A stretch of 64,000 nt of DNA from Thermoplasmata archaeon (GCA_038851035.1 JAWCLH010000003.1:47511-111510); one strand, 5' to 3'. Positions 7,461 to 64,000 are shown, counted from the first letter of the stretch. Notes: generated by a model from the sequence alone, not told the origin. A program made the numbers and translations.

Positions 7461-7967
7461 CGAAATTCCTAGCGCTCGCCAATTATTTCTTGCTTTGAGG
7501 ATATCTGGATTCAAAAGTCCGTGCTGAATTCTCTGTAACCACGTGAATTCCCATGGAGACCTTGGGAGACTTTTTGCTAACTGTCTGAGTATATTTCTAG
7601 CTAGGTCGATGTTTTCATCATTAAGTTCTGGAATTTCAATGAAAGATAGAGCTCCAGAGGTGGAAGGATGAATGTCATAGAGGTCTATAACAAGCGGAGG
7701 TTGAGCCGTGATAATGAATCTGAAAACATATGCAAATTTTGGAATGGGGACAATAGCATAGAGTTGTGAGTAGGGTTTTTCTGAGCGTTCTCTTCTAAAG
7801 CTAAGACCCATTTCATTAAGAAGCTTTCTTAGGACAGAAGCTGTTGATTGAGCATTAAATGATATCGCGGATGACCAGTGAAGTATTTCACATTTGGATT
7901 TCTTTTTTCTTTTTTTTACCATTGAAGGCTTCTCTATACGTTCTTGCCTATTGATGGTGGATTTCAT
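7455..7967 (-). CDS. Hypothetical protein encoded in the AT-rich island (basic KKRKKKSK N-region)
   Basis: 170-aa ORF with codon usage matching the neighbouring AT-rich cdc6 gene; no family recognised. Confidence 0.35.
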   Translation of the reverse strand: MKSTINRQERIEKPSMVKKRKKKSKCEILHWSSAISFNAQSTASVLRKLLNEMGLSFRRERSEKPYSQLYAIVPIPKFAYVFRFIITAQPPLVIDLYDIHPSTSGALSFIEIPELNDENIDLARNILRQLAKSLPRSPWEFTWLQRIQHGLLNPDILKARNNWRALGISL

Positions 7968-8030
7968 GATTTGAATAATGAGTCGTATTTAAATGAACTT
8001 TTGGGTGGTTCAAAAGAGAAGGGCAGAGGG

Positions 8031-8053
8031 ACCCCTTCATTTCCTGTGGAAAT
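8031..8053 (-). promoter_or_regulatory. ORB-like origin recognition box (dyad TTCCACAGGAAAT + GAA + GGGGT, read on the minus strand)
   Basis: accccttcatttcctgtggaaat; its reverse complement TTCCACAGGAAATGAAGGGGT matches the archaeal ORB architecture (TTCC-N5-GGAA dyad followed by a G-string). It lies 180 nt upstream of cdc6. Confidence 0.45.
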
Positions 8054-8236
8054 CTAAAGAAACTTGATTGATTAGTTTTAAGATAGGAGATTCTAACGAT
8101 TTTGTAAAGAATTGTTATTATCGTCTACATGAAAACAATTTCTTGTTACAAACAGAAAAGTATTTGAAAATGGTATCCATTCCGCTTATCCCACAATAAA
8201 GAAAGGGGAGGAAGAAGGCTAGGAGGAGAAACCCAA

Positions 8237-9517
8237 ATGAGAGATGGAGAGACTGGAAAGGAAAACATAATGGATGACCACGTTACGGTCTTTGATCTCT
8301 ATCTTGATGAGAATATTCGCCCAATATTTAAAAAAGATAGATACGTTCTAAGACCTGAGTACGTACCAAATCGTCTTCCTCATAGAGATAGAGAAATTGA
8401 TCAGCTCGCTTCAATTCTCGTTACAGCTCTTAAAGGTGGCAGACCATCGAACGTTCTTATTTATGGGAAAACTGGCACAGGAAAAACTGCAGTCATAAAA
8501 TTTATTCAAAAAGAGATAGAAAAAAAAGCTTATTCACAGCTCCAGCAAATTCATTGTACTTATATAAATTGTCAGATAGTTGATACGGAATATGGCATTT
8601 TGGCTAATATAGGAAATATGTTTATTAAGGACTGGGATGAGAGAATTCCATTCACAGGATGGCCAACTGAGAAAGTTTATAATCATCTAAGAGAAAAAAT
8701 AGATAATGCCAGAGGCATTATATTAATAGTATTGGATGAAATAGATAAACTTATATTTAAGAGCGGAGATGATGTTTTATATCATCTAACTACTTTAAAT
8801 GAAGATTTAAAAAATTCAAAAATGAGTATTATAGGAATATCTAACGAATCTAAATTCACAGAATTCTTAGACCCTCGGGTCCAAACAAGATTAGGTGAAG
8901 AACGCCTTGTCTTTCCTCCATATAACGCCCATGAACTTTTTGATATACTAAAGCAGAGAGCACAATTAGCATTTGAAGATGGTGCAGTCGATGATTCTGT
9001 TATTTCTCTATGCGCAGCTCTCGCTGCTCAAGAACACGGAGATGCAAGAAGGGCACTTGATTTTCTCAGAGTAGCTGGAGAGCTTGCAGAAAGAGAGAGG
9101 TGTTCTAAAGTTACTGAAAGGCATGTATGGAAGGCAAAAGACAAAATCGAGCTTGATGTACAAATGGAACTCATAAGAACACTTCCAACTCAATCGAAGC
9201 TTCTCCTTTATGGAATAATCCTAAAATCTGAAGAGAGCATAACAATTCAAACAACTGGAGAAGTATACGATATATACAGAGAATTATGTTATAGGGCAAA
9301 TATTCAGCCTGTCAGCCAAAGAAGAATTACGGATCTCATTTCTGAGCTAGATATGCTTGGATTAATTAGCGCTCGAGTTCGTTCCTTCGGCAGGGGAGGA
9401 AGAACAAGAGAGATAACTTTGAGTGTGAATGTTCCAGATACAAAAAGAGTACTATATGAAGACGAAATAATTCGAGAGATAATGGATTTCACTTCTTCAC
9501 AACAGAAAATTATTTAG
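8237..9517 (+). CDS. cdc6: Orc1/Cdc6 replication initiator (AAA+ with C-terminal winged helix)
   Basis: Walker A GKTGTGKT, Walker B ILIVLDEID, sensor motifs, C-terminal wH; strong GGAGG SD 8 nt upstream. The gene is conspicuously AT-rich compared with its flanks. Confidence 0.9.
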   Translation: MRDGETGKENIMDDHVTVFDLYLDENIRPIFKKDRYVLRPEYVPNRLPHRDREIDQLASILVTALKGGRPSNVLIYGKTGTGKTAVIKFIQKEIEKKAYSQLQQIHCTYINCQIVDTEYGILANIGNMFIKDWDERIPFTGWPTEKVYNHLREKIDNARGIILIVLDEIDKLIFKSGDDVLYHLTTLNEDLKNSKMSIIGISNESKFTEFLDPRVQTRLGEERLVFPPYNAHELFDILKQRAQLAFEDGAVDDSVISLCAALAAQEHGDARRALDFLRVAGELAERERCSKVTERHVWKAKDKIELDVQMELIRTLPTQSKLLLYGIILKSEESITIQTTGEVYDIYRELCYRANIQPVSQRRITDLISELDMLGLISARVRSFGRGGRTREITLSVNVPDTKRVLYEDEIIREIMDFTSSQQKII

Positions 9518-10506
9518 TATTTCTTTTTTAGTTTTGCTCGTAGATCTTTTCTTTTTGTTTTTCTTTTTTTCAAAATTGAAATAATAAAATCAATACTGAT
9601 AGGAATAACTACAAGAATAACAATTGTTATAATTAATCCTCTAACACTAGTTTCTGGAAAAGTCTCAGAGCGATGACCCGTGACCCAAAGTTTGAAAAGA
9701 CCGAACCAAGGCAGTTCTCCTTCTGCTCTACCCACAATCCATTCGAGTTTAACAGGAGCTACTAAAGCTCCGTTCACTCTTAAAGATTCTTGGTCAACTT
9801 TTTGAATATTATGGTCTCCCTTTGTAAGAAAACCACTGTCTTGTTTTTGCGAAAAAATAACATTAAACGATATCGTCAAATCCTCTTTTCTATATCCTTG
9901 ATTTTTTATAGTATAAAATTTAACATTATACACATTAATATCTGGTATATCTCCTCTGATATCGTGAGTAGTCATGCATGAAGCGGTTCTATTGTACTCA
10001 ACCCATGCGATCGCGCGATGAATAACTGGAGTATCAGAGAGTCCGTTTTTTTTATATACTATCACATGACCGAAGTCTCCATAAGTCATAACACCATACT
10101 TAGGTGAAGTTCTACATGTGGCTTCTACATAAGTCACAATATCGTGTCGATTATTGATTTTTTTAACAAGAGTGAGATCCCCGGTATCAATAACGCCTAT
10201 TTGACTGTCATTTCCATGCATCATACTGCTGGATTCTATAACTACCATTGGCGGCCACACACCAGAATACATAAATAAAATGCCTAAAACAGAAAAGACT
10301 ATAATCGCAGATACAATGATATCCCTGACTAAACCATAAAAATATTCTTTATAACGAGATTTAGATTTCTTTTCTATCGTTTTATCTTCATTTAAATTAA
10401 ATAATTTTCTACGTCTTTTCTTGACGCTTTTATCATTTAATTTAGGATTAGAGCAGTGTTTAAGAAAATCATTAGATCCCCTCTTCATGCCTGCCCACTC
10501 CGCCAT
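9514..10506 (-). CDS. Signal peptidase I, archaeal/eukaryal Sec11-type (S26), with a large extra domain and a C-terminal TM
   Basis: N-terminal TM followed by VVIESSSMMHG (SGSMEP-like catalytic Ser box) and GVIDTGDLTLVKK (GDL box); 330 aa; AT-rich codon usage like cdc6. Confidence 0.6.
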   Translation of the reverse strand: MAEWAGMKRGSNDFLKHCSNPKLNDKSVKKRRRKLFNLNEDKTIEKKSKSRYKEYFYGLVRDIIVSAIIVFSVLGILFMYSGVWPPMVVIESSSMMHGNDSQIGVIDTGDLTLVKKINNRHDIVTYVEATCRTSPKYGVMTYGDFGHVIVYKKNGLSDTPVIHRAIAWVEYNRTASCMTTHDIRGDIPDINVYNVKFYTIKNQGYRKEDLTISFNVIFSQKQDSGFLTKGDHNIQKVDQESLRVNGALVAPVKLEWIVGRAEGELPWFGLFKLWVTGHRSETFPETSVRGLIITIVILVVIPISIDFIISILKKRKTKRKDLRAKLKKKY

Positions 10507-10633
10507 TCCTTCTGGACTGTTTTTTTCATCATAGACAGAGACGAGTAAGGAGGATGTTCAATATATATATCTTGGCAAAATATCAAATAAAAAAGGAGTT
10601 TTTACCCATAAGTACCTACTTATAATTTTCAAA

Positions 10634-10654
10634 TTCCATAGGAAATAAAGGGGT
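10634..10654 (+). promoter_or_regulatory. ORB-like origin recognition box (TTCCATAGGAAAT + AAA + GGGGT), inverted relative to the ORB at 8031-8053
   Basis: ttccataggaaataaaggggt in the AT-rich spacer that follows an A/T-rich DUE-like stretch at 10560-10620. Confidence 0.45.
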
Positions 10655-10771
10655 AGGAGGACTTAAAAATAGAAAAACTATTTATAATACTTTAGCTAAA
10701 ATAAGCCAAAAACTATTCTTGACCAAAAATATTATTAAGCAATACTACCATCTTGGCTTTGGTGAGAATGG

Positions 10772-11074
10772 ATGGAGCTAGAGATTGACGCTCCCGTCGT
10801 CCTTGACACCCTCCGTAACCTTTATAAAGGGGCTATTCGGGGGTCGAGAGTTCTTGACGACATTATCCGCGCCCATAAGATAACATATGAGGAGGCGGTT
10901 GAAGTTCTTCATTTTCTATTGAAAAACCAATTAATTCTCAACATAGAAAAAAATAGAATCAATGGGGACGCAGTGTACAAACTAACAAGAAGAGGAGAGG
11001 TAGTCATTGAAGAAAGACTTTCTAGCCTCTACCACTCTAACCCCAAGGCCGGGGGTGTGGGGGGAGTGATATGA
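10772..11074 (+). CDS. Small winged-helix DNA-binding protein
   Basis: 100 aa with a wHTH-like core (ITYEEAVEVLHFLLKNQLI...YKLTRRGE); GC-rich codon usage resumes here. Confidence 0.45.
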   Translation: MELEIDAPVVLDTLRNLYKGAIRGSRVLDDIIRAHKITYEEAVEVLHFLLKNQLILNIEKNRINGDAVYKLTRRGEVVIEERLSSLYHSNPKAGGVGGVI

Positions 11075-52021: not shown

Positions 52022-52204
52022 GTCTCAGCTAATGAGTGCGCTTCAGGGTTCGCAATTCAACCCTCCAAATCGCATCCATGTGCAAACACAGGATACGGCT
52101 CACATACGCTCCCGTATCCTGTGGCTTCAGAAGAGCCGCTTCTCTGCCGCGGAAGTGGCTCTTCCTCGCATCAGACTTTCTGTGCGCTCAATATAAAGTC
52201 TGAT

Positions 52205-52279
52205 GCTCCCGCCGGGATTTGAACCCGGGTGACCAGCTCGAAAGGCTGGCATGATTGACCGGACTACACTACGGGAGCA
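52205..52279 (-). tRNA. tRNA-Glu (anticodon UUC)
   Basis: Reverse complement GCTCCCGTAGTGTAGTCCGGTCAATCATGCCAGCCTTTCGAGCTGGTCACCCGGGTTCAAATCCCGGCGGGAGCA folds with a 7-bp acceptor, CCAGC/GCTGG anticodon stem, loop CTTTCGA and TTCAAAT T-loop. CCA is not encoded. Confidence 0.8.
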
Positions 52280-56672: not shown

Positions 56673-57109
56673 GTTCGTGTAGACCCTCAGGCTTGAGTCT
56701 TCAACAATGACCTCGAGCCCGTGCTCAGAAATCAGCCACCGGACGTCTTGTGGGGTGAGAGGGGCCCTCCGCTCCCGGCGGTTGATATCCTCCCGGCGAA
56801 TGCCTATCCTCGCTACCAGTGCTCTACCCCCATGGGCAATCGAGATTAGGTTAGATAATCTTTATTGGACATACGCTATCACGGGGGGGTTGTTGAATGG
56901 GACACCCGGAGTTCCATTAAGGGCCACTCGAAGCGCTCCTGCACATTCGGAGGTCCTCGGTGCCCACCTAAACATACGGTGCGAAAATGTTATCCTTTGA
57001 AAATACCACAAAATTGAATAGTCGTGAAGGGCAATAGCATTGGGGAGGGATAGGGACGCGCGGTGCCGATGACAGAAATATCGAGACTGTTACCGCTATC
57101 TCTAAGCTT

Positions 57110-57352
57110 GTGGGCGGGATCGGGGTGCTCTTCGGCTTGGTGGGTATCGGCTTGCTTTATTATTATATATATGAAGCTTTCCCGGACGCACCCACGCGCA
57201 TAGGATGGTGGGCGACTATCTCAATCGGCTTATGCATAATATTTTTCATAGTATATTTCATCTTAAAAGATACCCTCCAGAGCATGGAGCTGGAACGCCG
57301 GAGGAAGGTCGAGAGAAACCTCGGTTCTGGAGAAAAAGGGGAAAAAATCTAG
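57110..57352 (+). CDS. Small 2-TM membrane protein (tentative)
   Basis: 80 aa, two hydrophobic helices, Lys/Arg/Glu-rich tail. Confidence 0.3.
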   Translation: MGGIGVLFGLVGIGLLYYYIYEAFPDAPTRIGWWATISIGLCIIFFIVYFILKDTLQSMELERRRKVERNLGSGEKGEKI

Positions 57353-57536
57353 CGCCGCGTTGCTGGGGGTGCACAGGCCCTGCCGGGAAATGGTGAAGTG
57401 GGGGTGCGGGGATTTTCCCTTCGGGCAACAACTAACGGCTCGCTAGGCTCCTGTTAATTGTTGATTTGGGCCCCTTCCTCTCTACCGTATCGGAAGGTCC
57501 CCCTCTCAAATCCGACGCCCTCCAATAAAGTTGAAG

Positions 57537-57610
57537 TGCGGGCGTCGGGATTTGAACCCGAGTTCTGAGCTTGGCAAGCTCAAGTGATAACCAGTCTACA
57601 CTACACCCGC
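57537..57610 (-). tRNA. tRNA-Gly (anticodon GCC)
   Basis: Reverse complement GCGGGTGTAGTGTAGACTGGTTATCACTTGAGCTTGCCAAGCTCAGAACTCGGGTTCAAATCCCGACGCCCGCA; anticodon loop TTGCCAA. Confidence 0.8.
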
Positions 57611-57874
57611 ACCGGCCAGCGTGTATCATCTTGCCCCTTTTAAAGGTTTTACTGGTCCTCTCCGGGCATAAGGATTGCCCCGGGGTTTTCAGAAAAAGGA
57701 TCGCGCGGGGTTTTCCAAATTCTATACAGGGGCAATCGGAGGGGATCCTACTCTTCTGCAGGGCATCACGCCGTACCACTGCATCCGGCCCTTTTCCTAC
57801 ATCTGACTGGGATGGGGAATCGAGTGGAGTACGACCGGAAGCAATTATTAGCTCCAGCCATATTCCCTGCCCAA

Positions 57875-57947
57875 GGGCCCGTGGGGTAGCTTGGTATCCT
57901 AGGAGCTTTGGGAGCTTCAGACTCCGGTTCAAATCCGGACGGGCCCA
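57875..57947 (+). tRNA. tRNA-Pro (anticodon UGG); its 3' 17-20 nt are duplicated at 62262-62281
   Basis: GGGCCCGTGGGGTAGCTTGGTATCCTAGGAGCTTTGGGAGCTTCAGACTCCGGTTCAAATCCGGACGGGCCCA; anticodon loop TTTGGGA; closely resembles archaeal tRNA-Pro. Confidence 0.85.
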
Positions 57948-58027
57948 TTTTCACCCCCTTTTACCGATAGTGAATGAAGGTCCAGAAGGGGATAAGCTTT
58001 CTCTTCCGGGGACTGGGGAGCTGTCGG

Positions 58028-58840
58028 TCAATCTTGACTTTCCTCCTTCTTTATAGGGCCTGGAATTGGCCCTGGCCTTGTTTTTCTTTCCGAGGGGGCA
58101 TCAGCCTGGCCCGGGACAGACTGCATTTCCTGAGGGGTTTCTGGGGGTCCTGGAGGGCATTCCTGTGGGGGGTGCTGGCCCGAGGCCTCCGGTTTAATCC
58201 TGGCCGGAATAGAGCGCGTCTCCGGTGCTGCGGGTGTCTGAGCCTCCGAAAGGATGCTGCCAGGCCAGGGACACTCGCCCGGCTTCTCCTCCCCTATCAG
58301 AATTCTGCCCATTCTCTCCATAATCCATTCGCCGTCCTGAAGTTCGGCATCACGCTGCCGGTATCCCTGCATAAACGCTTTTTTGAGCCGCGGCTCACCT
58401 AGGAAAACCGGGCCATCTTCCTGTTCTTTTGCTCCGGCACCAAGAGACCTTGCTTTCAACTGGGTTTCCAAGACACGCCGTATCTGCTCCGTCAGGGCCA
58501 AAAGGACCTGAACCGGAGCATGGCCGCCAGAGGCCAAATCGGCTTCGAGCCCCTTGAGTCGGTCAAGATACCTGGCAAGTTCCCAGCCAACATCGATTTC
58601 TGAACTTGTGACATCTGAAGAAGTGTGACATCCGTTCTTCCGGGCTATTCGGTCCTCTGCCACCAATATGGGTTGTGTGACATTCACTATGACGCTTGCG
58701 GGCTTATGGAGCCTGTGCCCGAGCTGGCGGACATTTGCTGGCGTTGTGGAATACTTCCGGGCCAGTACAGTGGCGGGCTGGTCTCCTTTAAGGATATCTG
58801 CTTTGAGGCTCAGGCGGGCCTCAGGGGACATCCTGGTCAA
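58028..58840 (-). CDS. Hypothetical protein with an N-terminal HTH-like region (element-encoded)
   Basis: 270 aa; ATVLARKYSTTPANVRQLGHRL HTH-like segment; Pro/Glu-rich C-terminus. Confidence 0.4.
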   Translation of the reverse strand: MTRMSPEARLSLKADILKGDQPATVLARKYSTTPANVRQLGHRLHKPASVIVNVTQPILVAEDRIARKNGCHTSSDVTSSEIDVGWELARYLDRLKGLEADLASGGHAPVQVLLALTEQIRRVLETQLKARSLGAGAKEQEDGPVFLGEPRLKKAFMQGYRQRDAELQDGEWIMERMGRILIGEEKPGECPWPGSILSEAQTPAAPETRSIPARIKPEASGQHPPQECPPGPPETPQEMQSVPGQADAPSERKTRPGPIPGPIKKEESQD

Positions 58841-58994
58841 GAGAGACCCCTCTGCCCATGCTGCCGGGGTACAGGGCCTGAACCCTGCTGCCTGCCAGGT
58901 CCGGCTTCGGCTCTGTTCCGTATGACTGTTACCTCTAACACAGGGGAATTTGGTATTGGGGTATATCTCGCCCCCATGTTAACATTTGAATTCA

Positions 58995-60098
58995 TTAGCA
59001 GACCCCCCGCGCAACCGGAATGGCCGGTGGGGATGGTGGGTCTGGTTTGGCCCTTATACTGCCGGTTGCACCGCTTGCGCCGGTTGCACCATAGATATCC
59101 GGTTGTACCTTTTTTCCGGTTGCGCTCTTTTTCCTCAGGATTCTTTGAGGACTCGGATACTTCCTTGGGATAATAGGTTTCGGTCTGGGGGTCATAGTCA
59201 AGAATCTTCTTGTCGCCGCGTCGGATTTTTTCCCCAGTCTGACCTTCCAAAAAGTAAACTGTCTGCTGTTTTGTTCATCGGGGGTCTTCGGCCTAGAATT
59301 ACCTCGCGCGTCTCTTGGTTGTGCCGTCTCCTCAAACAGGATATTGGTAGTGGCCAAATCCTTATATATAGAGGGACCACGAATGTCATCAGCATCCGTG
59401 TCCATTATTCGCCCGTTGCTCCTGAATTTTTTACGAAGGTGATGGATTAAAACGAAAAAGACCTTCTCCTTTTGTGATATTTGTTTTATGCTGTCAATGA
59501 ACCGCTTGGCGTCGCCAGGGTCGTCCGGATTTCCGGCGACTGCCAGCTGAAGATTGTCAAGAATCACCAACTCTGCACCTTTTATCAATCTCCGGAAATC
59601 CTGCTCCCTGGTGGGCAGACGCAAAGGGTCCAAATGCTGACATCGAATATAGTCTCTAGCGGTTGGATACATCCTCTCCAGTTTTTCCGTCCGCTGAACC
59701 AAATCATACTGGGAAGATTCCAGGTCAAGATAAGCAACCACAGTCCGTCGAGTCTTTAACCCGAGAAATAGTTCTCCGCTGGCCACAGCGTAAGCCATCT
59801 GCAAAGCAAATTGGGTTTTCCCCGTGCCTTCTCTTCCGCCGATAATAATGTATCCGGGCTCGATGGGGTCCGGTATCAGGTCCTCAATAATAAATGGCGG
59901 TCGAGGTTTCTCCAAGCACTGCCTGCGGTATTCCCTGGCTGAGGGGATGAGGCAATGAATTATCCCCCCACATTTATCTGGAATAACCCCGGCAGTTTTC
60001 TCCTTCCAAGCATTGGGGTCCTTGCCGCCTTGCTGCTGCGGCTCCGAGCCCTGCTGTTCCTGGACCTGATGGTCCTGGCCTCTCAGGTCCTCGGTCAT
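58995..60098 (-). CDS. RepA-like RecA-superfamily ATPase (AAA_25 / primase-helicase C-terminal type) typical of archaeal plasmids and integrated elements
   Basis: Walker A GGREGTGKTQFALQMAYA, Walker B VILDNLQLAV, VFFVLIHHLRKK; Gln-rich N-terminus. Confidence 0.6.
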   Translation of the reverse strand: MTEDLRGQDHQVQEQQGSEPQQQGGKDPNAWKEKTAGVIPDKCGGIIHCLIPSAREYRRQCLEKPRPPFIIEDLIPDPIEPGYIIIGGREGTGKTQFALQMAYAVASGELFLGLKTRRTVVAYLDLESSQYDLVQRTEKLERMYPTARDYIRCQHLDPLRLPTREQDFRRLIKGAELVILDNLQLAVAGNPDDPGDAKRFIDSIKQISQKEKVFFVLIHHLRKKFRSNGRIMDTDADDIRGPSIYKDLATTNILFEETAQPRDARGNSRPKTPDEQNSRQFTFWKVRLGKKSDAATRRFLTMTPRPKPIIPRKYPSPQRILRKKSATGKKVQPDIYGATGASGATGSIRAKPDPPSPPAIPVARGVC

Positions 60099-61027
60099 GA
60101 ATGCACCTCCTCGATTTTCAGAACTGCTGAGCGGTTGAACCGAATCCGCGTATTATCACGGCGGACCAAGACCAGAAACTGAGGGTCATCCTCAATAAGC
60201 TGGATCCCTCTGCATCGCCGCACACCCTCGTCCGGGTCGCGATAAACAACTGAAATATCCCCCGTGCCCTCACCCCCTATATTTGGCTATTTTATAATAT
60301 ATTTAATAAGGGTAATATGCGTTGCGTGGTGTAGGAATAGAATCCTACAATAGGTGATGGGCATGGGAGATAATCGCAGGGCAGGGAAGCGGAAAAGGTT
60401 TGTTGGCCTCTCATATCTTCAATATGAGATATATCAACTCGTTTAATACTCCGGACCTTATTCAATCCCGCATATTATGGAACTTCTTCATCTTCCGAAA
60501 TCATCCCGGCCCGATGTTTATGATGGATCCAACAACTTGTCAAATTCGGTTATCTAAAAAAGCAGCGGACACACTTGGAGAAAATTGGACGCGAATATGG
60601 GGAGCGAGATAAGGGAAAAGACCCTGCTCACTACATTTTTAACCAAGGAAAAATGGGTCCTGGAAGGGGGCCCACTTATGTCTATGTTGACAATCGTCCT
60701 GTCGAAAAAATAATTAATGAAATCAATGACCTCGATAAATCTCTCGGAAGAGGGGGGCTCTCAGGAGATGAGACAAAAAGAATCAATGAAATGAGGTTCG
60801 GGTTATTGAGAAAGCTTCTCTATATCGGACCGAATCTGAAGCCTTCGTGACATTTCGCCATCCGGGAATTGAACATTTTTCAGAAAGTGCTATTCCCCCT
60901 TTTGATGAGTCAGTTTTTCCGTATGGAGCTTTCAGGATAATCTTTAATATCCCGTCCGTATATTATTTTGTCCGCCCGGGGGGCGCTCTGGGACTGCCGA
61001 TACTGCCAGGCATCGAGGGTGGAGACC

Positions 61028-61702
61028 ATGAGGGTGAGAACGATATTGGCGGTGCTTACGCTATTGTGTTTATTGACACCTGTGGATATTATCTCAGCGA
61101 AGACGAATGTCAAGAATGAGACGGTAAATGAAAATGATCATTACTCCGATTGGCTCTTTGGAGTCTCCAAGGGTGACAAGATAGACATTGATGTTACATC
61201 AACGGGCAACATCGATATTTACATCATATCCAACAATCAATATTGGAGCGGTTATCTCGGCATCTATTCGAATTTCACGCCCACCTTTCAGATGCTCAAT
61301 GTCACAACAGCGCATTTCTCCTGGACAAAACCCGATGACCAATCTTACTGCTTGGTGATTGATAATAGAGTCAATGATATCGAAGGCAGCGCGAATCCTG
61401 TCGGTCCGGTGACTATTTCTCTCACTCGTAGCGACCCTTTCTCAGAGAATGTACAAGCAGCTGGTGAAGCACTCAGTTTCTTCTGTCTCGCGGTCATAGT
61501 GATTCTCATAGTGATTGTGGTCCTTATTATTGTTGGAATTGTAATCTATGTAAAGAGAAAATCCCAGAAAACTCCACCGCTGCAGCCCTACCCGCAACAG
61601 CAATATTATCAGCAACAGCCTCAATATGTCCCTGTTCAATATCCGCCTCAGTATCCACAACAGCCTCCCCAACCGCCATATTATCCACCTCAAGGGCGAT
61701 AG
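61028..61702 (+). CDS. Secreted/membrane-anchored protein with signal peptide, C-terminal TM and a Pro/Gln/Tyr-rich tail (start trimmed to MRVRTILAVL)
   Basis: MRVRTILAVLTLLCLLTPVDIISA signal; TM FFCLAVIVILIVIVVLIIVGIVIYV; tail PPLQPYPQQQYYQQQPQYVPVQYPPQYPQQPPQPPYYPPQ; AT-richer codon usage than the host. Confidence 0.45.
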   Translation: MRVRTILAVLTLLCLLTPVDIISAKTNVKNETVNENDHYSDWLFGVSKGDKIDIDVTSTGNIDIYIISNNQYWSGYLGIYSNFTPTFQMLNVTTAHFSWTKPDDQSYCLVIDNRVNDIEGSANPVGPVTISLTRSDPFSENVQAAGEALSFFCLAVIVILIVIVVLIIVGIVIYVKRKSQKTPPLQPYPQQQYYQQQPQYVPVQYPPQYPQQPPQPPYYPPQGR

Positions 61703-62261
61703 TCTGCCGGTCTGCTGCCGGTGACCTGGGGCCTGCTCATAGCCTGCTGACGGACATTCTTGGTATCATAGAACCGGTAACAAGATACCGTCTTCCGTCC
61801 AATAACACGGGTTATTGGACACTCAACGAGCGCGTATTTAAAGTCAACAAGCCTCCAATGCTTATTCATATGCTCGCATTCTGATGCTGTGAAAAACATG
61901 CTTCATTATGCCCGGAACTGAACTGTATTGCGAGTTCTTCTACCATCAAGCCTCTCCCCAACTATCCTCTGTCCTGGGCCTGTCACAGAGCCCAGAAATG
62001 GCCTTTTAGGCAAATGCAAATCGATTTATGGCCAAACCGTGAATCAGCTGTGAAAAATTCTATAACCTGGGTTGAATCATTGAAAAAAGAAAAAACCCCC
62101 GGCCCCGTTTCTAGGACCAGGGGAGAACAGGACACAGGGCGGTTCTGGAATTCCCCGGAATGCTATCCGGGGGCCATTGAGACCGGGTTTTTCGTGCATG
62201 GCCCAGAGGTTCAATACTTGCCTGATTGAAAATGGGTCCACCGATAGTAAAAAAGGCGATT

Positions 62262-62281
62262 TTTAAATCCGGACGGGCCCA
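62262..62281 (+). repeat. Direct repeat of the tRNA-Pro 3' end (putative attR); immediately followed by a 10-bp perfect inverted repeat (62271-62280 / 62297-62306)
   Basis: tttaaatccggacgggccca matches ttcaaatccggacgggccca of the tRNA; ggacgggccc...gggcccgtcc hairpin with a 16-nt loop. Confidence 0.6.
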
Positions 62282-62468
62282 CTACGCAGTTGGTTAGGGC
62301 CCGTCCTTACCTTAAGCAGTCATTTCAGTTGGGGTCATGCGCTTTTGCAATTCGTACGGGTTGGAAGGACGGGAAAATAGGCGTTTGCATGTAAAATAGA
62401 AATTAATAAATGATTTAGAAGATAGCAAGGGAAGATATAAATTCTCCTTTTCTGTATTGTAATTGATT

Positions 62469-64000
62469 ATGACCCATGGGGCACCCTTTAAAAGGGCGGC
62501 GGTCGGGCTGCTGGCGCTTGGCCTAGCTCTTGGATGGTCAGTACTTCCGACCTCCAAGGCCTCGGTCTATCAGCTCAGCGTCTCCTCCCTTGCTCCTGAA
62601 TGGGTCAAGCCCCTCTCCGGGCCGGTTGCGATATTTGGAGTCAATATGTACCAGGACGGGGGCGAGCTCCTGACGGCCGTGGCGGTAAACTTCACGGACG
62701 CCAGCGGGGCTGGCCACTTCGATACATCCGACCTCGCGCCCCTCTCAACGAGTTCCTCGAGCGGTGTGGCTATTTATATTGACAACAAGACGAAGGGCAC
62801 AACAGGGCTCTTCGACCAGTACGACCAGCCTGCGCCACTCTCGGAGGTCCCCGCCTGGACCGTCGTCGGCAACACCTTCAGGACCGTCCTCAAGATGAGC
62901 GGCCTTCAAATCCCTCCCAGCGACCTCGCCAATTATTCAGGACCGGATTTCTTCATTGTCATCAGAACAAGTGCCCTAGCCTCTAACGGTGACAATTTCA
63001 CCGCCTCGCTAGCCTCGGGAGACGTATGGGTTGATGGCGTCCCCTTGGTTTTCTCGTCGGTGGGGACTGGGGTGATCACTGTTGATGCTATCGAGCCGCG
63101 CGCCTGCGCCGGCGATGACTTTACCGCAGAGGAGGGGGAGGAGTGCACATTTTACGGGGGCCTCTCAACGGACAATGTTGGGATTGCGCGATTTATATGG
63201 TCCTTTGGGGACTTTGGGTCCGATGGCGTGGCCAGCGGCTCCTTTGTTTCCCACACCTACAAAGCCCCTGGGCGCTACACCGTTGTGCTGAACGTCACCG
63301 ATCCGGCCGGCAACTCTGATGAAGACACCCTGGTTGTGACCGTCTTGAACATCAACCAGCCCCCAGAGATTATCTCCATCCCTCCGAGCGCGGGGGTCCA
63401 GGGTAGGGACTACACATATTTAATGAGAGCCATAGACCCCGACGGCGACACCCTCACCTTCCTTAAACTCGAGGGCCCGGACGGAATGATTGTGGATTCT
63501 AGCTCCGGCCTTGTTTCCTGGAAACCGGGCGTCACAGACGCAAACCGTACTTTCAGGGTGGTTCTTGGCGTCACGGACGGCATAGCTTCACCGGCCAGCC
63601 AGTCCTATTTCCTCACCGTTCAGAACATCAACGACCCACCGTATTTTAAGAGCCTCCCGGTGCTCATCGCCCTTCAGGGGCGGCCCTATTTTTATCAAGC
63701 CGAGGCCGAGGACCCGGACCACGACGCCCAGCTTGTGTTCTCAATTGTGGCGGGGCCTCGCGGAATGTCCATCGAGGCATTCACGGGTCTCGTCAGCTGG
63801 ACCCCGACCAATGAGCAGGTAGGGCTGAACCGTATTGTGCTGGCCGTCTCAGACGGCGAGTTCACGGCTTACCAGAGCTTCGAGGTGAATGTAACCAATG
63901 CCAACGACCCCCCGCAGATTCACTCCCTTCCTCCGACCATCGCCCAGCAGGGTGTGCTATATGAGTACCAGATTCGGGCTTACGACCCGGACGGCGACGA
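62469..64000 (+). CDS. Partial (N-terminal 510 aa) secreted protein with PKD and repeated cadherin-like/He_PIG Ig-like domains; runs off the window end
   Basis: Signal MTHGAPFKRAAVGLLALGLALGWSVLPTSKA; PKD core FVSHTYKAPGRYTVVLNVTDPAGN; repeats of NxNxPPxxxSxP...Y.Y...A.DPDGDTLTF...GP.GM.VDSSSGLVSW. The frame is open from 62469 to 64000 with host codon usage; it is absent from the track because it lacks a stop. Confidence 0.75.
   Translation, partial: MTHGAPFKRAAVGLLALGLALGWSVLPTSKASVYQLSVSSLAPEWVKPLSGPVAIFGVNMYQDGGELLTAVAVNFTDASGAGHFDTSDLAPLSTSSSSGVAIYIDNKTKGTTGLFDQYDQPAPLSEVPAWTVVGNTFRTVLKMSGLQIPPSDLANYSGPDFFIVIRTSALASNGDNFTASLASGDVWVDGVPLVFSSVGTGVITVDAIEPRACAGDDFTAEEGEECTFYGGLSTDNVGIARFIWSFGDFGSDGVASGSFVSHTYKAPGRYTVVLNVTDPAGNSDEDTLVVTVLNINQPPEIISIPPSAGVQGRDYTYLMRAIDPDGDTLTFLKLEGPDGMIVDSSSGLVSWKPGVTDANRTFRVVLGVTDGIASPASQSYFLTVQNINDPPYFKSLPVLIALQGRPYFYQAEAEDPDHDAQLVFSIVAGPRGMSIEAFTGLVSWTPTNEQVGLNRIVLAVSDGEFTAYQSFEVNVTNANDPPQIHSLPPTIAQQGVLYEYQIRAYDPDGD

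Follow-up and report, generated by a model that had tools for sequence, protein, structure and literature searches.

Beside a tRNA-Pro gene in the genome of a Thermoplasmata archaeon (GCA_038851035.1) lies a segment of 4.3 kb that is bordered on both sides by the 3' end of the tRNA and that encodes an ATPase of plasmid replication type. The locus was studied within a stretch of 64,000 nucleotides (JAWCLH010000003.1:47511-111510), which at its full length is called the window throughout, with positions counted from its first letter. A sequence-only reading of this DNA had proposed that the segment is an integrated plasmid-like element carrying no integrase, and it is this putative element, with its boundaries, its genes and its relationship to known mobile DNA, that we consider here. 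The features that mark its two ends are as follows.

57875-57947, plus strand: tRNA-Pro(UGG), the proposed integration target; 73 nt, CCA not encoded (ARAGORN, and Rfam RF00005 at 56 bits)
57931-57947, plus strand: core of the left attachment site (attL); exact 17-mer, identity ending at the tRNA 3' terminus
57963-57971, plus strand: left copy of the 9-mer ACCGATAGT, 15 nt from the core; candidate arm or accessory site
62240-62248, plus strand: right copy of ACCGATAGT, 16 nt from the core; candidate arm or accessory site
62265-62281, plus strand: core of the right attachment site (attR), a partial tRNA-Pro 3' end; exact 17-mer, at which ARAGORN calls no tRNA
62271-62306, plus strand: perfect 10-bp inverted repeat, GGACGGGCCC-N16-GGGCCCGTCC, read as the native 3' trailer hairpin of tRNA-Pro, on the host side

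The final 17 nt of tRNA-Pro, AAATCCGGACGGGCCCA, occur exactly twice in the window, both times on the plus strand, whereas shuffled sequence is expected to hold 0.04 copies; no further copy was found in the window at up to two mismatches. An exact match search agreed with the sequence-only reading on the position of both copies and on their extension, since lengthening the repeat by 3 nt leftward leaves 19 of 20 positions identical with a single mismatch. A third copy is absent also from the 5.9 kb past the window's right end. The identity halts at the discriminator base, the last nucleotide of tRNA-Pro, and the core that is shared takes in the 3' strands of both the T-stem and the acceptor stem, three nucleotides of the T-loop and the discriminator itself. 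Such a 17-bp core is a classical chromosomal attachment site (attB) for tRNA-targeting integrases, and the locus has the direct repeats, one of them within an intact tRNA 3' end, by which tRNA-integrated elements are recognised. Across 57000-62700 Rfam reports nothing above threshold except two tRNAs. The idea that the segment might be a tandem of two elements was tried through a search for an internal degenerate attachment site and rejected, the best candidate within the element having at least four mismatches, which is the background level.

The distal copy of the core is followed by a perfect 10-bp inverted repeat that had already been noticed from the sequence and is real, repeats of such type being found at 5 loci in the 64 kb against about 1.9 expected. 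At attR the tRNA's own 3' strand pairs over 10 nt with its complement downstream; at attL the tRNA tail is without a trailer partner, and its inverted repeat of 4 nt is at background. Among the six tRNA genes of these Thermoplasmata that were examined are some with an inverted copy of their own 3' end 15-40 nt downstream or a hairpin abutting it, features that may serve termination or processing. In tRNA-Gly of the same window (trailer at 57500-57513) the analogous pair is TCAAATCCCGACGCC ... GGCGTCGGATTTGA, perfect over 9 nt and extending to 14 nt with one bulge; tRNA-Leu of an unrelated Thermoplasmatales metagenome-assembled genome (MAG; L084 3460-3545) has a 16-nt inverted copy of its own 3' end, and a 12-bp hairpin abuts the end of tRNA-Glu (52168-52207). 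The hairpin after attR looks like a native tRNA trailer and not like part of the element, for the adjacent tRNA-Gly is built in the same way. Since the trailer hairpin is present only at attR, the DNA that follows 62281 looks like the 3' flank that tRNA-Pro had originally, moved by 4.3 kb. With few tRNAs sampled, we regard this sequence argument as supportive rather than decisive.

A further regularity concerns the 9-mer ACCGATAGT, of which the 64-kb window holds three exact copies. Two of these flank the core, and in the reconstructed attachment site of the circular form (attP) they lie 16 nt to its left and 15 nt to its right, in like orientation. By our own estimate such a placement would arise by chance with a probability of about 0.01, and the two copies are therefore named above as candidates only.

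Gene content and composition

The element extends over 57948-62281 (4,334 bp), and two divergent gene modules lie between the repeats (57948-62264).

58028-58840, minus strand: gene for a 270-aa orphan protein with an N-terminal three-helix helix-turn-helix (HTH) region, long helices and a disordered Pro-rich tail
58995-60098, minus strand: repA, for an AAA_25 (RepA-DnaB-type) RecA-fold ATPase of 367 aa with a conserved core at about residues 49-294 (Pfam, PHROG, tblastn)
59012-59122, minus strand: iteron-like array in the 3' end of repA; four direct copies and one inverted copy of CAACCGG, then GCGCGGGGGGTCTG
60224-60574, no strand: AT-rich intergenic region between the modules, GC 0.41-0.44; no annotated gene in any MAG
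60575-60850, plus strand: gene for a 91-aa orphan protein, annotated in MAGs; disordered N-terminus and helical hairpin
61028-61702, plus strand: gene for a type-I membrane protein (from translation; the NCBI gene call is 224 aa from 61028)
61703-62264, no strand: non-coding right arm with a hairpin (61797-61820) and the right ACCGATAGT copy; no Pfam match in any frame

The GC content of the element is 0.50, against 0.58 outside it, and falls to 0.456 in the right half (about 2 kb), which bears out the earlier remark that this part is AT-richer than the host. The GC content at third codon positions (GC3) is depressed in all four element genes as well, at 0.41-0.57 compared with a host mean of 0.71 (sd 0.11, 25 host genes). 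The segment accordingly combines foreign composition with a hallmark gene of mobile elements, that for the RepA/AAA_25 ATPase.

This minus-strand ATPase had been correctly recognised. RepA matches Pfam AAA_25 at 1.1e-22 (81.1 bits, cut-off 27) and DnaB_C at 3.4e-6, and contains all three of the motifs previously picked out, Walker A (GREGTGKT, residues 88-95), Walker B (VILDNLQ, 178-184) and HHLRKK (219-224). A score above the gathering threshold together with both Walker motifs places it in the AAA_25 family, and it is predicted to be a helicase-type ATPase. Its matches among PHROGs are to primase/helicase and DnaB-like families, and tblastn leads to a 4.8-kb plasmid that encodes a 'helicase RepA family protein'.

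Towards the 3' end of repA the CAACCGG direct repeats are spaced by 18, 19 and 17 nt, and five of the 15 copies of the heptamer CCGGTTG in the window fall within 110 nt. The same array of four plus one copies is present at the same place in the gene for a 55%-identical RepA homologue (P0002), the only one that is not trivial, known from metagenome contigs of 1.3-1.6 kb, one of which (L002, 1343-1441) has five heptamer copies against 0.18 expected. Between the two genes the DNA block CACCGG.CAT.CCGGTTGCGCGGGGG is conserved, whereas elsewhere blastn aligns just 132 nt at 69%, and conservation at the DNA level in a gene so diverged argues for a cis-acting site. Conservation of the array is probably also why the C-terminal tail of RepA seems conserved, the extensions of the protein being of low complexity and poorly conserved in the homologue. 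At least three direct repeats, about two helical turns apart and next to a rep gene, are the pattern of iteron replicons and are what is found here; judged from its sequence, the array probably consists of iterons, that is, an origin or an operator.

The most likely binding partner of the array, by analogy with RepA and RepC of IncQ plasmids, is the HTH protein encoded downstream, whose gene lies 80 bp from attL. The sequence-only reading had identified it as an HTH protein, and its AlphaFold2 model indeed has a three-helix HTH at the N-terminus. The models are single-sequence ones and confidence is low outside the HTH: residues 1-45 have predicted local distance difference test (pLDDT) scores of 74-92 and are all-alpha, with no strands, and beyond them are long low-confidence helices and some 90 disordered Pro-rich residues. 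Among 5.8 billion proteins searched, relatives of the 270-aa protein were found only within the same population, and there was no match in Pfam, PHROG, NCBIfam or a PDB sequence search. Foldseek comparison of the model with the PDB gave no match with E below 1, the weak N-terminal matches being to HTH regulators. As modelled, this is not a recombinase fold, and the analogy with IncQ makes the protein a candidate iteron- or operator-binding initiator or regulator.

Relatives of RepA point in the direction of mobile DNA. HMMER searches of 1.84 billion representatives gave 2,729 relatives at E<=1e-3 and only 2 at E<=1e-30, the next tier being 30-36% identical and consisting mostly of stand-alone proteins of 255-300 aa, some of them fused to a longer N-terminal region. 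The distant relatives for which context is available lie in small, mobile-element-like gene sets with an HTH_17 gene directly upstream, which overlaps the start of repA in three contigs (L095-L097). Two contigs, L091 and L099, extend far enough to show more of the surroundings, and both encode serine recombinases near the RepA relative; L099 also bears an OLD-family nuclease. A search of IMG/VR with the RepA profile returned nothing. The RepA family is associated with mobile elements and its relatives travel with recombinases, which fits the loss of such a module in the present element.

The AT-rich region between the modules (60224-60574) probably holds divergent promoters. To its right, the 91-aa protein is modelled with helices at residues 41-58 and 64-87 (pLDDT 85-91) and has no family match in Pfam, PHROGs or NCBIfam. 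The neighbouring product had been described as a secreted protein with a PQY-rich tail; its signal peptide and its tail stand, but the sequence fits a type-I membrane protein better, one in which an ectodomain of some 130 aa and a single transmembrane helix precede the PQY-rich tail in the cytoplasm. Pfam and NCBIfam give only sub-threshold matches to this protein, driven by the transmembrane segment. Conjugation and relaxase domains are absent among the open reading frames (ORFs) of the element according to Pfam, PHROGs and NCBIfam, and its DNA as a whole has no match among PLSDB plasmids or INPHARED phages.

Recombinase genes and the locus in other assemblies

An integrase within the element, which is expected of elements integrated at tRNA genes, is missing. 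Pfam searches of all six frames of 57900-62400 gave no match to a recombinase, transposase or excisionase (Xis) at E<=0.05, and PHROGs and NCBIfam likewise gave no recombinase in the element. These results, which include a profile search of the 270-aa protein and the small ORFs for integrase and Xis folds that the sequence-only reading had called for, uphold its statement that neither a tyrosine nor a serine recombinase is recognisable. A split integrase of the type found in the virus SSV1 is excluded, as no ORF of more than 57 aa spans the junction of the circularised element (the longest that span it are 54, 57 and 32 aa). In the rest of the window Pfam finds housekeeping genes and no integrase among the larger ORFs (>=110-180 aa), and the genes called over 6 kb past its right end include none either. 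A 330-aa ORF at 9.5-10.5 kb was considered as an integrase that might act in trans and was rejected, since by its sequence it resembles a signal peptidase or membrane protein.

That ORF (9514-10506, minus strand) and a 170-aa ORF lie beside an Orc1/Cdc6 gene (8237-9517; GC 0.36, GC3 0.25) in an AT-rich island at about 7500-11000, where GC is 0.35-0.44 against 0.58. Either a further foreign replicon has left this remnant, or the island is an origin region of an unusual kind. On the far side of the element, a PKD/He_PIG surface protein of 969 aa begins at 62469; next come an E1-like gene of the ThiF family and a gene for a protein of 3,145 aa that matches Prok-RING_1 faintly (L086 1-4821), a neighbourhood that is possibly a ubiquitin-like or defence-type module.

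The chromosomal setting of the element is an ordinary one, with genes for ribosomal proteins L1 and L10, Spt5, two FtsZ proteins, PFK, pyruvate kinase and saccharopine dehydrogenases. Over the 15 kb that were compared, the window shows 2 mismatches to a contig of the Thermoplasmata MAG GCA_038870335.1 (JAWCPG010000001.1, 141.8 kb). The same arrangement, with attL or both junctions, is found in a second MAG, GCA_038848995.1, at 99.8% identity, and in Logan assemblies of the separate runs SRR27730043 and SRR27730040, and a further MAG encodes the element proteins, according to protein accessions in the cluster listing. Because the junctions recur in independent assemblies, they are not an assembly chimera.

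Several searches were made for related sites. The adjacent alanine dehydrogenase (AlaDH)-like gene was searched for in 185,579 species genomes, where its best relatives are at most 58% identical and none has tRNA-Pro nearby; an AlaDH of 70% identity (MGQ9582158.1) is encoded on a 49-kb contig of another MAG. A degenerate 25-mer covering all four types of attachment junction gave a single match in JGI metagenomes, which is due to chance: it lies inside a transposase-like ORF on an unrelated high-GC contig (L085 1403-1427) and is neither a tRNA nor an attachment site. The 17-mer itself was not found in IMG/VR. Exact look-ups of RepA, the 270-aa protein, an 80-aa neighbour and a 99%-identical AlaDH variant led to contigs that carry the element at the same site or stop before tRNA-Pro.

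Comparison of strains adds some detail. Over 57305-64000 (6.7 kb) the window and GCA_038848995.1 differ at 11 places, all of them inside the element (58732-61828). One is a 1-nt deletion at 59987 in GCA_038848995.1, which splits the poorly conserved N-terminus of repA to give ORFs of 45 and 306 aa; six are non-compensatory single-nucleotide polymorphisms clustered in the hairpin GTCCAATAAC-N4-GTTATTGGAC (61797-61820). The confinement of all differences to the element is ambiguous and, given this clustering, statistically not compelling. In a 97-98% identical strain, GCA_038894075.1 (JAWAQE010000005.1, L102 1-277; window 57550 onward), homology stops inside the 3' part of tRNA-Gly, and the contig ends in 3.4 copies of an 82-nt tandem repeat, each unit of which holds the last 14-15 nt of tRNA-Gly. 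The break could mark another insertion targeted to a tRNA within the population, or else an assembly loop; the tRNA-Pro locus of this strain is on another contig.

Origin and mobility of the element

The sequence-only reading had seen in this locus the footprint of integration into a tRNA gene, and that view is sustained by a repeat that ends at the tRNA terminus, by foreign composition and by a replication module of plasmid type. We think it likely that the segment is a site-specifically integrated plasmid-like element whose integrase has been lost or was never present, and that, in the manner of the cis-mobilisable elements (CIMEs) discussed below, it is immobile or depends on a recombinase supplied in trans. 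We infer that integration was by a tyrosine recombinase, and likewise the roles of the 9-mers and of the HTH protein and the loss of the integrase or its supply in trans. According to this model, a circular form of 4,334 bp would have carried attP, with a 17-bp core equal to the tRNA 3' terminus between two ACCGATAGT sites, and an integrase of tyrosine recombinase type would have exchanged strands inside the core. The product would be an attL that keeps the tRNA intact and an attR that adjoins the tRNA's original trailer hairpin, and the junctions before integration can be reconstructed as ...CTCCGGTTCAAATCCGGACGGGCCCACTACGCAGTTGGTTAGGGCCCGTCC for attB and ...ACCGATAGTAAAAAAGGCGATTTTTAAATCCGGACGGGCCCATTTTCACCCCCTTTTACCGATAGTG for attP. 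The element has retained a replication module made up of the RepA/AAA_25 ATPase, the CAACCGG iterons and the HTH protein as possible initiator or regulator, together with an AT-richer cargo module that encodes two small proteins to which no function is assigned.

As no recombinase is encoded, the element would be acted on in cis, either fixed after loss of its integrase module or reliant on the integrase of another element. That it is a fixed remnant has, in our judgement, close to an even chance; that it is an active element dependent on help in trans appears rather doubtful. Identical cores, intact 9-mers, intact repA motifs and conserved iterons point to continued function, and occupation of the site in every assembly and the 1-nt deletion in repA of one MAG point to decay or fixation. 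The sequence-only reading had offered three options, of which a non-canonical integrase inside the segment has become unlikely, the 270-aa protein being an all-helical HTH with disorder and the 91-aa protein a helical hairpin; the other two, a decayed element and one mobilised in trans, were not separable.

A number of observations weigh against the interpretation of the segment as an integrated element that has lost or lacks its integrase. Neither an empty attB nor a circular attP junction was recovered, so that integration is read from the footprint alone, and the shared position of the element in all sampled genomes would also be seen if the segment were old and vertically inherited. The left half is near host GC (the 270-aa gene is at 0.57), and the supposed ACCGATAGT arms are just two copies with a p value, estimated by ourselves, of roughly 0.01. 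The nearest recombinases seen beside distant RepA relatives are of the serine type, which would not yield a 17-bp direct repeat, and no candidate helper integrase was identified within the 64 kb and about 6 kb more of the genome.

Among the alternatives the one that survives best, although we consider it unlikely, is that of an intact satellite, still mobile through a tyrosine integrase that also recognises tRNA-Pro and is encoded by a virus, a plasmid or an integrated element resident alongside it. It would be an archaeal analogue of elements mobilisable in cis or in trans. The preservation of both cores and both 9-mers would agree with this, as would the iterons and a repA ORF that is intact, with its motifs, in at least one MAG assembly and in Logan contigs. 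The strain differences, all of which lie within the element, could then reflect exchange with extrachromosomal copies, and the break in tRNA-Gly of the 98%-identical strain hints at active tRNA-targeting integration in the population. However, that break could stem from an assembly loop, a helper integrase was not seen, no assembly contains a contig with an attB or attP junction, and one MAG has the 1-nt deletion in the 5' region of repA. An extension of the same idea, to which we give slightly less credence, makes the element a functional member of an undescribed family of integrase-free integrative plasmids of Thermoplasmata, which would have its own helicase and iteron origin, would borrow an integrase in trans from another element or from the host, and would shuttle between a 4.3-kb circle and tRNA-Pro as an archaeal counterpart of bacterial satellites and CIMEs.

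It is very improbable that no integration took place at all and that the distal 17-mer with its hairpin was left behind when the 3' end of tRNA-Pro was locally duplicated or rearranged, the genes being native but atypical. The presence of the segment in all sampled genomes, with no empty site found, is what such a history would produce, and inverted copies of tRNA 3' ends beside other tRNAs in the lineage mean that fragments of tRNA ends are not unique to element borders. Against this, the copy here is direct, not inverted, and ends exactly at the tRNA terminus, while the interior holds a plasmid- or phage-type RepA whose relatives occur in mobile-element contexts, iterons, and orphan genes with foreign GC3. 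We also attach little weight to a composite island, in which the copy at 62265 would be an internal attachment site left by tandem accretion and the integrase would lie beyond the PKD, ThiF and 3,145-aa genes. At tRNA sites, elements are commonly arrayed in tandem with decayed partners (PMC5704250), and the downstream PKD surface protein, ThiF and the giant 3,145-aa protein look island-like; but GC returns to the host level right after 62400, the native-looking trailer hairpin stands directly after 62281, the genes called downstream include no integrase and the 17-mer does not recur over the 5.9 kb searched there. That the element encodes a non-canonical recombinase of its own, in the 270-aa protein, in the N- or C-terminal extensions of RepA or in a small ORF, is likewise very improbable: the 270-aa orphan has a modelled DNA-binding domain and is encoded close to attL, but its model lacks an alpha/beta catalytic domain and has no Foldseek match with E below 1, six frames contain no recombinase, transposase or Xis profile match, and the RepA extensions are of low complexity, with a C-terminal 'conservation' that coincides with the DNA iterons.

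The element that we take to have integrated without an integrase gene of its own resembles several known systems in part. The cryptic integrated elements (CIEs) of Thaumarchaeota range from 2.6 to 98 kb, with a median attachment repeat of 17 bp (Krupovic et al. 2019, PMC6563490). They are similar to our element in that they can be small, are bounded by short attachment repeats at tRNA or other targets, and combine replication genes and (winged) HTH genes with hypothetical proteins and no virion or conjugation genes; in contrast, CIEs are defined by a conserved integrase, of which none is detectable here, and their replication proteins are primase-helicases, MCM proteins or rolling-circle endonucleases instead of a stand-alone AAA_25 RepA-type ATPase (PMC6563490). 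The host also differs, being a Thermoplasmata archaeon. CIMEs of Firmicutes are decayed derivatives of integrative and conjugative or integrative and mobilisable elements that have kept their attachment sites and lost their integration genes (PMC5704250). Like them, the present element keeps attL and attR at a tRNA 3' end without integration genes, and would move only with a recombinase, or an accreting element, supplied to it (PMC5704250). It differs in being archaeal and in keeping a replication module of plasmid type, whereas CIMEs are bacterial and come from conjugative or mobilisable elements. Retention of attL and attR in the absence of integration and transfer genes, by which CIMEs are recognised, is found here.

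Elements of the SSV type (SSV1 and pT26-2/TKV-like elements) share with ours the archaeal host, the tRNA 3' end as target and a direct repeat that restores the tRNA. In those elements attP lies inside int, so that int(N) and int(C) border the integrated copy, and neither is present here, no integrase ORF being restored across attP. The attachment cores of SSV-type elements are about 40-50 bp long, longer than the 17 bp of this element. IncQ plasmids such as RSF1010 have the AAA_25 RepA, the array of direct-repeat iterons and the downstream gene for a DNA-binding protein, a set that has a probable counterpart here, resembling an iteron replicon with a helicase of its own. The module of RSF1010 combines the RepA helicase with the iteron-binding initiator RepC, and its gene order is comparable. 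The 270-aa protein is without detectable similarity to RepC, and the element further differs from RSF1010 in having no primase gene, in the position of its iterons within the repA coding sequence and in its archaeal host. Integrative mobile elements exploiting Xer (IMEX), which use host Xer at dif, were considered and set aside: here a tRNA-Pro gene is the target, at its 3' end, and the repeat stops where the tRNA does; the host dif was not identified.

To our knowledge almost nothing has been described of the mobile elements of uncultured Thermoplasmata, and the present locus adds a small and cleanly bounded example. We read it as an unremarkable cryptic integrated element that lacks one part, and if it has merely decayed it is a routine record of the capture of a plasmid at a tRNA gene. 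With its RepA-type helicase, iterons and defined attachment sites it could become a minimal scaffold for replication or integration, should a matching integrase be found. If, alternatively, it is moved by a borrowed integrase, it would document satellite-type parasitism between archaeal mobile elements.

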